Assembly: GCA_964513145.1 (NCBI GenBank)
Contig: CAZELK010000001.1
Location: forward strand, 153,692-217,691
Source: Candidatus Woesearchaeota archaeon
GTDB taxonomy: Archaea; Nanobdellota; Nanobdellia; SCGC-AAA011-G17; JACPIM01
DNA length: 64,000 nt
Direction of reading: 5' to 3'
Shown here piece after piece: positions 8,274-12,214 of the stretch. Position numbers and translations under genes: made by a program. Below the pieces are notes generated by a model. It saw only the letters and a program-made list of their open reading frames with translations. It was not told where the DNA came from and searched no databases. The number at the start of each line of letters is the position of its first letter. Position 1 is the first letter of the stretch.

Positions 8274-8795
8274 ATGATAGAATTAGAAAGAACTTATTTG
8301 TTGAAAGAAATTCCAAAGAATCTTAAGAGTTGTAAATTCAAAGAAATTATTGACCTTTATATTCCTAAATCAAATCAGCATCCTGTTTTAAGAATAAGAA
8401 AGAATGGGAGTAAATTTGAAATGACTAAAAAACAGCCAATCAAAGGCAACGATTCTTCTTGCCAAGAAGAACAAACAATAACCCTCAGTGAAGAAGAATT
8501 TAAAGAATTAAATAAAATTGATGGCAAAAAAATACATAAAATAAGATATTATTATGATTGCAATAATAAAATAGCTGAAATTGATGTTTTTCAGGATTTA
8601 TTGAATGGCTTGATCCTTGTTGATTTTGAATTTGAAACAACTGAAGAGAAAGATTCTTTTAAAATTCCAGAATTTTGTTTAGCTGATGTTACACAAGATA
8701 AATTTATTGCTGGAGGAATGCTTTGCGGCAAATCATACAAAGACATAGAAAATGAACTTAAACAATTTAAATATAAAAAATTATTTTTAGTTTAA
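8274..8795 (+). CDS. CYTH-domain protein
   Basis: N-terminal IELERTYL (ExExK-like), LRIRK, KIRY, EIDVF, VDFEF. Confidence 0.8.
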   Translation: MIELERTYLLKEIPKNLKSCKFKEIIDLYIPKSNQHPVLRIRKNGSKFEMTKKQPIKGNDSSCQEEQTITLSEEEFKELNKIDGKKIHKIRYYYDCNNKIAEIDVFQDLLNGLILVDFEFETTEEKDSFKIPEFCLADVTQDKFIAGGMLCGKSYKDIENELKQFKYKKLFLV

Positions 8796-8969: not shown

Positions 8970-9587
8970 ATGCTTAAAGAATGGATTTCAAATGATTACT
9001 TGAAGGAAAATAAAATTAAAGAATTGCGAAATAAATTTAATAAAGCAAGTCCTTTTTCGCATATAGTTTTAAAAGATTTTTTTGATAAAAAGAAATTAGC
9101 CCAGGTTTTAGATTCTTTAATACACCAGGAATTTATTGAAAAAAATACGGATTTATTCCAGTTCAAGCAGTCCCAAGATATAAGTTCAATAAATTTAAAC
9201 AGTTTAAAAGATTTTTACTCTTTTTTTTCTTCAAGAGAATTTTGTGATTATATAAGCAGGCTAACTAATACGCAAGTAGAAAGCATAGATATGTCTGGTT
9301 TTTTTTATCAAAAAACAGATTACTTATTGCCTCATGATGACCAATTAGAAGGAAGGAAAATCGCCTATGTTGTGAATTTGTCAAATAAGTTTAAAAGAAA
9401 AGATGGTGGAAGGCTGCAATTATTCTCTGTTTTTAATGGAAAGCCAAAAAAGATAATTAAGTCATATTTACCAGAATTTAATAAGTTTATTTTATTTAAA
9501 GTCTCAGAAATCTCATTTCATCAAGTAGAAGAAATTATGTCAAATAAGGAAAGAATTTCTTTGGCTGGTTGGTTTCATGGAAATTAA
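8970..9587 (+). CDS. 2OG-Fe(II) oxygenase, OGFOD1/Tpa1-like catalytic domain
   Basis: YLLPHDDQLEGRKIAY (HxD), SFHQVEE (distal His), ERISLAGWFHG (2OG-binding Arg). Confidence 0.85.
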   Translation: MLKEWISNDYLKENKIKELRNKFNKASPFSHIVLKDFFDKKKLAQVLDSLIHQEFIEKNTDLFQFKQSQDISSINLNSLKDFYSFFSSREFCDYISRLTNTQVESIDMSGFFYQKTDYLLPHDDQLEGRKIAYVVNLSNKFKRKDGGRLQLFSVFNGKPKKIIKSYLPEFNKFILFKVSEISFHQVEEIMSNKERISLAGWFHGN

Positions 9588-10179
9588 ACAATTATTAAAA
9601 TCAGAAATTCTAAATGAATTTATTGCGCAAGATTACCTAGACTACAGTAATCTGTTAAATATTAAAGATACTTTTGGTGCAAATACTCCAAAAAGCATTA
9701 AACTAGAACAATTCTTTAAAAAAGAAAAATATGATTTATTAAAAAAAGAGATTTATGATTTAAAATTTAAAGAAATATATATTCCAGATAGTTATTCTTT
9801 TTCAAAGTCAAATTTAGGAAATGAATTCTCCAGATTATTTAATTCAAAAGATTTTATTTCATTTATTTCATTCATTGTTGGAAGAAATATAAAAAATATT
9901 AAGGCAGAGTCTTTGTTATTTGATCATAAAGATTATACATTATTAAAAGATAATGCAAATGAAACATTTCTTGAAATAAATTTCTTTTTTAATGATGACT
10001 GGAAAGAGGAATATGGTGGTTATTTTTCATATTTTAAAGATGAAGAATTATTAAGAATTTTCCCAGTTGAAAATAATGTTACAATTATTTATTTAAGGGA
10101 AATGCAGAGATTTGTTAAATATATTAATGTAAAATCTTCAAAAAGAAAGATTTATTTAATATCATTATCAGAAAAATAA
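9577..10179 (+). CDS. Degenerate 2OG-oxygenase fold, OGFOD1/Ofd1 C-terminal-domain-like
   Basis: EILNEFIAQDYLD, YTLLKD, WKEEYGGYFSY..DEELL..P..N, FVKYIN; no Fe ligands; overlaps the upstream gene by 11 nt. Confidence 0.75.
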   Translation: MEIKQLLKSEILNEFIAQDYLDYSNLLNIKDTFGANTPKSIKLEQFFKKEKYDLLKKEIYDLKFKEIYIPDSYSFSKSNLGNEFSRLFNSKDFISFISFIVGRNIKNIKAESLLFDHKDYTLLKDNANETFLEINFFFNDDWKEEYGGYFSYFKDEELLRIFPVENNVTIIYLREMQRFVKYINVKSSKRKIYLISLSEK

Positions 10180-10180
10180 G

Positions 10181-10438
10181 ATGTCTTTAGACAATTTGCC
10201 GATTTTAGAAAGTTTAAGGGAACTAACAAAAAGACCAATAAAAACAGTTGAAAAAGCTATAATAAGCGGCTTTAATGTGGATGGAATTTATGTCAAAGAA
10301 GTTTTTGCTATGGGTATTGTTAATTCTGAAACTTTTGGCATGAAACCAGGAAAGAAATTTTTAGTTTATATTGAAAAGAATTCTAAAAGCCTTGTAGCCA
10401 CACAAACAGATTATATAATTAATTATGATGCTGGGTAA
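10181..10438 (+). CDS. Hypothetical protein
   Basis: 85-aa ORF starting 1 nt after the upstream stop. Confidence 0.5.
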   Translation: MSLDNLPILESLRELTKRPIKTVEKAIISGFNVDGIYVKEVFAMGIVNSETFGMKPGKKFLVYIEKNSKSLVATQTDYIINYDAG

Positions 10439-10908: not shown

Positions 10909-11457
10909 ATGTTCCATATGGAACAAATTATAGATTATAGGTTTGAAGTTATTAATGAATTATTGAAAGAGAAAAATCACATAAGAAATCTAGCTAAAAA
11001 TCTAAAAACCAACCATATGACTATTCTTAGAAGAATAAAAGAACTTTTTGATTTAAATGTAGTAGACTATAAAGAAGAAGGCAAAAATAAAGTTTATTTT
11101 TTAAAAGATACTATAGAAGCTAAAACAACTATAAATATGGCTGGAAATTATAAATTATTAAAAATAATAACAAAATATCCAAATTTAAGAAGAATAATAG
11201 AAAAACTACAAGAAAATAAACAAATACATCTTGCAGTTTTATTTGGTTCTTATGCAAAAGAAATCCCAAAAAAAGAAAGTGATATTGATGTATATATAGA
11301 AACAATTTCTCAAGACTTAAAAAAAGAATTAGAAAAAATAGATTCAAAATTAAGCATTAAAATTGGAAAGTATAATAAAGATAACCCAGTTATAAAAGAA
11401 ATTAAAAAAAATCACGTAATAATCAAAGGAATTGAAAGATATTATGAAATCAGTTGA
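10909..11457 (+). CDS. wHTH + minimal nucleotidyltransferase (MNT antitoxin-like)
   Basis: N-terminal HTH (HIRNLAKNLKTNHMTI), LFGSYAK...SDIDVY. Confidence 0.85.
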   Translation: MFHMEQIIDYRFEVINELLKEKNHIRNLAKNLKTNHMTILRRIKELFDLNVVDYKEEGKNKVYFLKDTIEAKTTINMAGNYKLLKIITKYPNLRRIIEKLQENKQIHLAVLFGSYAKEIPKKESDIDVYIETISQDLKKELEKIDSKLSIKIGKYNKDNPVIKEIKKNHVIIKGIERYYEIS

Positions 11458-11491
11458 TTTTTTAAAAACTTTAAAAATAGAGGGAAATTAA
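11444..11491 (+). pseudogene. Truncated 5' stub of the probable HEPN partner gene
   Basis: Overlapping ATG gives MKSVDFLKTLKIEGN*, which resembles N-termini of HEPN partners of DPANN MNTs as I recall them; stops after 15 codons. Confidence 0.45.
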
Positions 11492-11552
11492 CCTTAGATA
11501 AAGCAAAAGCTTATATATAAGATTTATCTTACTAATAAGATAGGTGAACAAA

Positions 11553-11810
11553 ATGAATGAATTAATTGAAATGGGCAAAATAAGTGCAAGAGGACAAGTA
11601 GCCATTCCTACAGAAATTAGAGAAAAAATGCACTTAAAAGAAGGACAAAAAATACTTTTTGTTTTAGCTGGCGATACTTTAATGGTTAAAAAGGTAAATA
11701 CTGAAACTTTTGCTGAAATAACAAAGCCATTAAAAGAAGCTGCAAAGAAAGTTGGTTTTAAAGAAGAAGATGTTGTTGATATAGTTCATAGAGCAAGACA
11801 AAAGAGATGA
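11553..11810 (+). CDS. AbrB/MazE/SpoVT-family antitoxin
   Basis: GKISARGQVAIPTEIREKMHLKEG; GGTGA SD; palindrome TATCTTA-N4-TAAGATA upstream. Confidence 0.9.
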   Translation: MNELIEMGKISARGQVAIPTEIREKMHLKEGQKILFVLAGDTLMVKKVNTETFAEITKPLKEAAKKVGFKEEDVVDIVHRARQKR

Positions 11811-12214
11811 AAAGAATAACAGTAGATACTAATGTATTAATTTCAGCTACATTTTGGCATGGAGATTCTGAGAAAATAATTGACAAAGCAGAAAATAAAG
11901 ATGTGGCTTTAGTTTTGTCTAAAGAAATATTAGAAGAATATAACCAAGTCCTTGAGTATGAGGAAATAAAAGAGAAAATAAAAAATAAAAATTTGGAAAT
12001 GAAAAAAGCAATGCTAAAAATAGGAACTATATCTGAAATAGTAGAAGTTAACTCTAAAGTTAATGTAGTAAAAGAAGATCCTGATGATAATAAAATAATA
12101 GAATGCGCAATTGATGGCAATTCAGAATATATAATAACAAAAGATAGACATTTATTAAAATTAAAAGAACATAAAGGAATAAAAATATTGACTCCTGAAG
12201 AATTTTTAAAATAG
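11807..12214 (+). CDS. PIN-domain (VapC-like) toxin
   Basis: VDTNVLIS, EDPDDNKIIECA, IITKDRHLL; ATGA overlap with the antitoxin. Confidence 0.9.
   Translation: MKRITVDTNVLISATFWHGDSEKIIDKAENKDVALVLSKEILEEYNQVLEYEEIKEKIKNKNLEMKKAMLKIGTISEIVEVNSKVNVVKEDPDDNKIIECAIDGNSEYIITKDRHLLKLKEHKGIKILTPEEFLK

Follow-up and report, generated by a model that had tools for sequence, protein, structure and literature searches.

Can an archaeon carry, as two separate genes, both halves of a ribosomal prolyl hydroxylase that is known as one eukaryotic polypeptide? OGFOD1, Tpa1, Ofd1 and Drosophila Sudestada1 are prolyl 3-hydroxylases of the ribosomal protein uS12, or RPS23 (Protein Data Bank (PDB) entries 4nhx, 4nhy, 3kt1, 4nhk and 6e0t), and the OGFOD1 subfamily has been called eukaryote-only (Horita et al. 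2015, PMC4396695). The question is raised by two overlapping open reading frames (ORFs), ORF1 and ORF2, in a 64,000-nucleotide stretch of contig CAZELK010000001.1 from a Candidatus Woesearchaeota archaeon, hereafter the window. An earlier note, made from the letters alone, had read this locus as a split homologue of OGFOD1 and Tpa1 with an active-plus-dead layout generally regarded as eukaryotic, which is indeed how the subfamily has been described. Our analysis leaves very little doubt about the family identity and the split; it also favours, with distinctly less assurance, the whole explanation that the pair is a bicistronic, translationally coupled, heterodimeric uS12 prolyl hydroxylase. 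In our literature search, neither an archaeal nor a split form turned up in any paper. Archaeal proteins of this kind already carry the Pfam family PF10637 through automatic annotation, and the information has been latent in databases.

ORF1 and ORF2 correspond to the two halves of OGFOD1

In HMMER searches of the PDB, ORF1 matched the N-terminal domain (NTD) of human OGFOD1 (4nhx, E 7e-36) and yeast Tpa1 (8e-16), and among solved structures nothing beyond OGFOD1 and Tpa1 fell below E 0.1. The bacterial prolyl hydroxylase PPHD (4iw3) reached E 0.98, and neither PHD2 nor a prolyl 4-hydroxylase (P4H) matched at E<=1. ORF1 also matched the 2-oxoglutarate (2OG) oxygenase family 2OG-FeII_Oxy_4 (PF13661; 1.7e-29), of which it is the only member in the whole genome, while its match to the YhhC-type oxygenase profile NF041706 (E 2.5e-9, 37.1 bits) stayed under the cut-off of 150.

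Previous structural work has shown that OGFOD1 uses an Fe triad of H155, D157 and H218, that Y169 and R230 (the latter in an RxS motif) contact the C5 carboxylate of 2OG, and that mutation of L95, Y96, L152 or R162 in the substrate groove lowers uS12 hydroxylation (Horita et al. 2015, PMC4396695). Mapping these residues through the HMMER alignment of ORF1 to OGFOD1 gives an Fe triad of H122-x-D124...H184 and a 2OG motif of R195-x-S197, with H122, D124, H184 and R195 invariant in 31/31 archaeal ORF1 homologues; judged by these residues, the active site of ORF1 is intact. The groove positions correspond to L62, F63, L119 and R129. Three of these, L62, L119 and R129, are each retained in all 31 homologues, and position 63 is F in 28 and Y in 3. 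The archaeal homologues further keep a short β4-β5 hairpin, DLFxFxQTxDL, which sets the subfamily apart from the PHD-type finger loop.

ORF2 scored 52 bits against the Pfam profile Ofd1_CTDD (PF10637; 7.7e-14; cut-off 27), and its sole PDB sequence match was the C-terminal domain (CTD) of OGFOD1 (1.6e-9). Its AlphaFold (AF2) model has a predicted local distance difference test score (pLDDT) of 95.6. The best Foldseek matches of this model were OGFOD1 (7.5e-16, query-based template-modelling score (TMq) 0.81-0.84), the Ofd1 CTD (6e0t, TMq 0.83) and Tpa1, with generic prolyl hydroxylases far behind (E ~1e-8, TM ~0.63). The positions equivalent to HxD hold K124 and N126, and Y182 lies in the region of the distal-His motif, leaving no Fe triad; ORF2 is an Ofd1_CTDD-type double-stranded β-helix (DSBH) without metal ligands. 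The dead domain nevertheless has a conserved set of its own, with Y182 and N184 present in 31/31 archaeal homologues and W142, G147, G148 and D125 in 30/31. Mean column identity is 43% for ORF1 and 33% for ORF2.

These results bear out how the two frames had been read, with an intact HxD...H triad and 2OG arginine in ORF1, no iron ligands in ORF2, and a match to both halves of OGFOD1/Tpa1. The human OGFOD1 motifs given in the earlier note all appear in the HMMER alignments to 4nhx, both for the catalytic half (chddelegrriaf, sfhqvse and rlsisgwfhg) and for the C-terminal half (eilydwinptyld, ytlihd, wepeyggftsy, deell and fvkhin).

The two-gene arrangement is conserved across archaeal loci

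The ATG of ORF2 sits within the His-Gly codons CAT GGA of the terminal GWFHG motif of ORF1 (Table 1). A layout of this kind could stem from a frameshift error in, or decay of, a fused gene, or from a programmed +1 frameshift that yields a fusion protein, and relative to ORF1 the frame of ORF2 is indeed +1, at this locus and in 42/54 loci. We therefore compared the junction in 54 non-redundant archaeal loci with both genes, comprising the window, 48 DPANN-group loci (two of them from metagenome-assembled genomes (MAGs) labelled Methanosarcinales) and five Asgard loci. They come from different assemblies, and their ORF1 identities range from ~35% to 64%.

In all 54 loci an ORF2-type gene comes after an ORF1-type gene on the same strand, and in none are the two fused. 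The genes are adjacent in 53 of them, the remaining locus, L024, having a gap of 768 nucleotides (nt). The start of ORF2 lies inside the last 14 nt of ORF1 in 51/54 loci (ATG in 45, GTG or TTG in 6 more), the ATG usually being embedded in the nAT-Gnn codons of the terminal ORF1 motif GWF-[H/Y/N]-[G/D/A/E]. Overlaps measure 4, 8, 11 or 14 nt, and three loci have a positive gap. The frame of ORF2 relative to ORF1 also varies, with 42 loci in the +1 relation, ten in the other, and two in which ORF2 follows in frame after a positive gap. A start codon of its own is present in each ORF2, and family-specific invariant residues are retained in both genes. The occurrence of both frame relations and of varied overlaps in these independent loci excludes a frameshift introduced by sequencing or assembly and speaks against a single, conserved, programmed frameshift, so that an artefactual or decayed origin of the split is extremely improbable and the two-gene form, as originally proposed, is genuine. 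The junction has the classic layout of translational coupling, which suggests that the two genes are coupled in translation; by the same geometry, a 1-nt indel between the ATG of ORF2 and the stop of ORF1 would be expected to fuse them.

ORF1 and ORF2 are predicted to form a heterodimer

Structure prediction of ORF1 together with ORF2 gave an interaction prediction score from aligned errors (ipSAE) of 0.88, against 0.04 for the best of three controls, a mark that is attained by 58 of 80 solved complexes and by 2 of 110 mismatched pairs. Contact agreement among runs was at least 97%, and the pLDDT of the partners at least 90. Since structures of OGFOD1 and Tpa1 have been solved, this pass may reflect likeness rather than independent evidence of binding.

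The predicted interface involves residues 61-64, 115-123, 152, 158-160 and 183-190 of ORF1 and residues 69-72, 118-123, 145-153 and 179-186 of ORF2 (including 120-123, Y182 and N184), that is, the HxD strand, the distal-His strand and the hairpins. In OGFOD1 and Tpa1 the NTD and CTD pack through their minor sheets with hairpin contacts (Horita et al. 2015, PMC4396695), in agreement with this interface. The location of Y182 and N184 would also explain why two residues of a catalytically dead domain are invariant. Taken together, a heterodimer of ORF1 and ORF2, as the earlier note had suggested, is likely on the basis of the model.

The pair occurs in archaeal lineages equipped for oxygen exposure

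The host genome measures 0.98 Mb and is 98.8% complete in 18 contigs. The GC content of the pair, 23.8%, fits that of the window (28.6%), so the genes look native. Close homologues occur in MAGs named Woesearchaeota, Nanoarchaeota or Nanoarchaeia; the Woesearchaeota have been placed in the kingdom Nanobdellati, that is, in DPANN, consistent with the DPANN host first assumed. An exhaustive HMMER search with ORF2 returned 540 clusters at 50% identity, 180 of them at E <= 1e-10, and the best 150 clusters are nearly all stand-alone proteins of ~190 residues. By family profile, the pair is present in 75/401 high-quality genomes of the host phylum and in 58/281 genera, about a fifth, nearly always as two adjacent frames of ~200 residues each; it is thus widespread in the phylum and not a singular oddity. 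In the Asgard phylum it was found in 5/301 genomes, where it is split too. The viral contigs that we scanned held no relative of the pair and gave no sign of a viral vector.

Two loci, L021 (CAYFMJ010000012.1) and L027 (CAYWPT010000006.1), that carry the pair are titled 'uncultured Methanosarcinales archaeon' and belong to genomes of ~1.2 and ~0.9 Mb. We do not accept them as evidence of the family in Methanosarcinales, as the genome of L021 is G223 itself, a member of the host phylum, and both labels are doubtful. In a congeneric genome (G001:C24:634-1113), an ORF2-type gene near a contig end is broken by TGA, TAG and TAA and looks to be decaying; no ORF1-type match was reported.

The lineages that have the pair are equipped for oxygen exposure, as expected of an enzyme that requires O2. 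The host genome encodes an Fe/Mn superoxide dismutase (SOD), and across the host phylum SOD is found in 72/75 carriers of the pair against 158/326 non-carriers (Fisher p 1.7e-16, a value that ignores kinship, from tallies that include the unpublished genomes G267, G380 and G416, all non-carriers, which enter these SOD counts only). Within the two largest families the trend runs the same way, the corresponding counts for carriers and non-carriers being 12/13 and 10/16 (f31) and 17/17 and 19/25 (f39). If the assignment is right, an obligately O2-using enzyme is thereby placed in DPANN archaea whose carriers almost always have an SOD. Possible sources of 2OG in the host genome are a gene of the glutamate-dehydrogenase family and aminotransferases.

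uS12 is the best-supported candidate substrate

The single uS12 gene of the genome, which lies on contig 8 and encodes 145 residues, reads VEAKQPNSAMRK and carries the nonamer VEAKQPNSA. Human RPS23 is identical at VEAKQPNSA around the hydroxylated Pro62. The presence in this genome of the expected target, KQPNSA, together with the conserved catalytic and groove residues, suggests O2-dependent modification of uS12 or O2 sensing, and uS12 prolyl hydroxylation is, by a modest lean, the probable function of the pair and the best supported one.

We propose that ORF1 and ORF2 constitute a self-contained bicistronic module of the catalytic and non-catalytic DSBH halves of an OGFOD1/Tpa1/Ofd1-type prolyl hydroxylase. 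The overlap would couple translation, so that the subunits are made at ~1:1, and these would pair minor sheet to minor sheet, reproducing the intramolecular NTD-CTD packing of OGFOD1. With O2, 2OG and Fe(II), the complex would hydroxylate the proline of the KQPNSA loop, a decoding-centre residue, on free uS12, and ribosome modification would thereby depend on oxygen availability in an organism with a superoxide dismutase. The proposal thus predicts that archaeal ribosomes are modified at their decoding centre in an oxygen-dependent manner.

Several observations weigh against this proposal. The equivalent of OGFOD1 Tyr169, which hydrogen-bonds the 2OG C5 carboxylate, is Asn136 in ORF1 (the archaeal family has Y in 21, N in 9 and Q in 1 homologues). 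To our knowledge, KQPNSA is near-universal in archaea and expected also in the ~80% of the phylum without the pair, so its presence permits the assignment without discriminating for it. When 486 flanking ORFs from the 54 loci were clustered, no neighbour family appeared in more than six loci and no translation or ribosomal gene was linked to the pair. The complex model may, as the prediction tool itself warns, draw on memory of the solved OGFOD1/Tpa1 structures, and the association with SOD is subject to the kinship noted above.

In a rival explanation, family and heterodimer are right and the physiological substrate is a different one. The pair might then hydroxylate some other basic protein of the ribosome, or a translation factor in the way that bacterial PPHD modifies EF-Tu; in a variant of this explanation, it would act mainly as an O2- and 2OG-responsive regulator through its non-catalytic subunit, like S. 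pombe Ofd1 in the control of Sre1. The lack of a genomic link to uS12 or translation speaks for such a role, as does the absence of the pair from most of a phylum in which uS12 is universal. The faster evolution of ORF2 is what would be expected of a partner-binding module, and the CTD has been reported to bind other partners, Nro1/Ett1, and Tpa1 on its own to show no activity towards uS12 peptides (Horita et al. 2015, PMC4396695). Set against this are the retention of the four mutagenesis-validated uS12-groove positions (F or Y at position 63) and of the subfamily hairpin, and the finding that the only significant solved relatives of ORF1 are uS12 hydroxylases, with PPHD clearly outside. The target nonamer of the genome's own uS12, moreover, matches the human sequence. 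On balance we regard a different substrate as the less probable outcome, one that still deserves serious attention, and we retain uS12 as the preferred candidate.

The archaeal pair is a split relative of the eukaryotic enzymes

The archaeal pair shares with OGFOD1, Tpa1 and Ofd1 the HxD...H DSBH, the RxS motif, the short hairpin, the groove residues and a metal-free Ofd1_CTDD-type DSBH. The eukaryotic proteins are single polypeptides with a linker of 31-95 residues between the halves, whereas the archaeal pair consists of two overlapping genes. The archaeal halves are compact (205 + 200 residues) and lack the acidic insert and the Tpa1 dimerisation elements, and they occur in DPANN and rarely in Asgard archaea, in contrast to a subfamily described from eukaryotes alone. 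In all sequence and structure features that we compared, with the domain packing as a prediction and apart from the single chain, the pair agrees with the OGFOD1 subfamily, of which it is a split, probably heterodimeric, archaeal variant.

Single-domain prolyl 4-hydroxylases (the EF-Tu hydroxylase PPHD, 4iw3/4j25; PHD2/EGLN1; CrP4H) share the DSBH fold and the cofactors with the pair, and previous authors have proposed that prolyl hydroxylases descend from a common ancestor. The single-domain enzymes lack a paired dead domain, and in place of the short rigid hairpin of ORF1 they have a long mobile finger loop; throughout the 54 loci ORF1 is paired with ORF2, unlike the stand-alone DSBH of PHD and PPHD. 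The likeness to the YhhC-type cyclophane-peptide 2OG oxygenases (NF041706) is a weak profile match over the oxygenase core only, and near ORF1-ORF2 there is no precursor or partner gene of a ribosomally synthesised and post-translationally modified peptide (RiPP). Prokaryotic prolyl hydroxylases have so far been described as single-domain enzymes; here, both halves of OGFOD1 are archaeal and encoded by separate genes in hundreds of lineages. The pair thus represents a naturally unfused, 'before fusion' counterpart of a two-domain enzyme, and omitting ORF2 would test what the dead domain contributes.

The archaeal N-profile scored 170-230 bits on the N-domain of full-length eukaryotic OGFOD1 proteins and the archaeal C-profile ~80-150 bits (summed pieces) on their C-domains, against only 10-50 bits on the crosswise domain. 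The low crosswise scores indicate that the N/C duplication took place before archaeal and eukaryotic forms diverged, so that the halves can root each other. Fused forms were found in their hundreds by searches with the profiles and with the protein P0050. This 426-residue protein is encoded by a compact fused OGFOD1-type gene, L014:8001-9281, on a 23-kb Logan contig (SRR6202010) that is densely packed and prokaryote-type, with DsbD, AhpC, a radical SAM protein, acyl-CoA dehydrogenase and a Bacteroidota-like pyruvate kinase. Two further compact fused proteins, P0261 and P0271 (~410-450 residues), were considered as prokaryotic fusions and rejected, as they are N-truncated gene calls on eukaryote-type contigs.

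We computed a reciprocally rooted tree (IQ-TREE, LG+C20+F+G4; 122 rows, 205 columns) from 35 DPANN pairs, five Asgard pairs, 14 named eukaryotes, mostly Opisthokonta and Amoebozoa, and seven further fused proteins, excluding 14 loci of the series L065-L079 and five N-truncated eukaryotic gene calls. The N|C split received support of 100/100, and the fused proteins formed one clade in each half (99/96 and 100/99). The 40 archaeal sequences together are sister to the fused clade in the N half (95/73); within them the Asgard copies group with a single DPANN sequence (99/96), not with the eukaryotes. In the C half, a wider assemblage of archaeal sequences encloses the fused clade (84/93), and long DPANN branches fall outside this assemblage. 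The position of P0050, within the eukaryotic clade, points to a probable transfer of this fused form from a eukaryote to a bacterium.

The earlier note had left the choice between an unfused ancestral form and a transfer from eukaryotes. No archaeal sequence is nested within the sampled eukaryotes, which argues against recent transfer. A deeper transfer, of a fused stem-eukaryotic gene that entered archaea and was then split, would fit the patchy archaeal distribution (75/401 and 5/301) and the reciprocal monophyly of the N half; the fused/split root is blind to direction, and the eukaryotes sampled are drawn mostly from two groups. Against such a transfer, tandem duplication first gives two adjacent genes, as in all 54 loci, and fusion takes a 1-nt indel at the junction, whereas a fission would require a stop and a start codon to arise at the same time. 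The C half, with its eukaryote-type clade inside archaea, also points the other way, if weakly, given the long branches, and so does the well-supported separation of the fused clade from every archaeal sequence. Transfer followed by fission therefore appears improbable to us.

Fusion from a two-gene state is the more parsimonious course on the sequences at hand. That the two-gene module is itself the ancestral unfused OGFOD1, born in archaea as an active/dead heterodimer when a single-domain prolyl hydroxylase gene was duplicated in tandem, later fused by a 1-nt indel at nAT-Gnn-stop and already hydroxylating uS12, is a suggestion that we put forward only tentatively. If true, oxygen-dependent tuning of ribosome fidelity would be older than eukaryotes and would operate in DPANN archaea. 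Given the rarity of the Asgard copies and their placement apart from the eukaryotes, the module alone does not point to the eukaryotic ancestor.

Gene neighbourhood

The most recurrent neighbours of the pair in the 54 loci are an unknown 174-residue protein, NUDIX, TatD, SOD, Dus and PCNA, and the maximum of 6/54 loci for any one family speaks against a conserved operon partner. In 3/54 loci (L024:395-985 and two related ones), an Fe/Mn SOD gene precedes the pair at a distance of ~30 nt and in the same orientation. The features of the window are listed in Table 1.

Table 1 Position and assignment of the ORF1-ORF2 pair and adjacent features in the window.
Feature	Position	Strand	Length	Assignment
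Upstream gene	8274-8795	+	173 aa	Matches PDB 2fbl (NE1496) and 3typ at E ~5e-7
ORF1	8970-9587	+	205 aa	Catalytic subunit, OGFOD1/Tpa1 N-terminal-domain orthologue (2OG/Fe(II) oxygenase); ends GWFHGN
ORF1/ORF2 overlap	9577-9587	+	11 nt	Stop/start overlap ATGGAAATTAA
ORF2	9577-10179	+	200 aa	Non-catalytic DSBH subunit, OGFOD1/Ofd1/Tpa1 C-terminal-domain orthologue
Downstream ORF	10181-10438	+	85 aa	
Further downstream region	10909-12214	+	182 aa; 88 aa/135 aa	Helix-turn-helix (HTH)-plus-nucleotidyltransferase-like ORF; gene pair with 4-nt overlap

The gene upstream of the pair has no Pfam match and lies outside the most recurrent neighbour family; the two structures that it matches are presumably CYTH/triphosphate-tunnel proteins. 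The 85-residue ORF, for which we found no Pfam match and no counterpart beside the pair in other genomes, begins 2 nt past the stop of ORF2 and may be co-transcribed with it. Further downstream, the overlapping 88- and 135-residue frames look like an AbrB-PIN toxin-antitoxin module.

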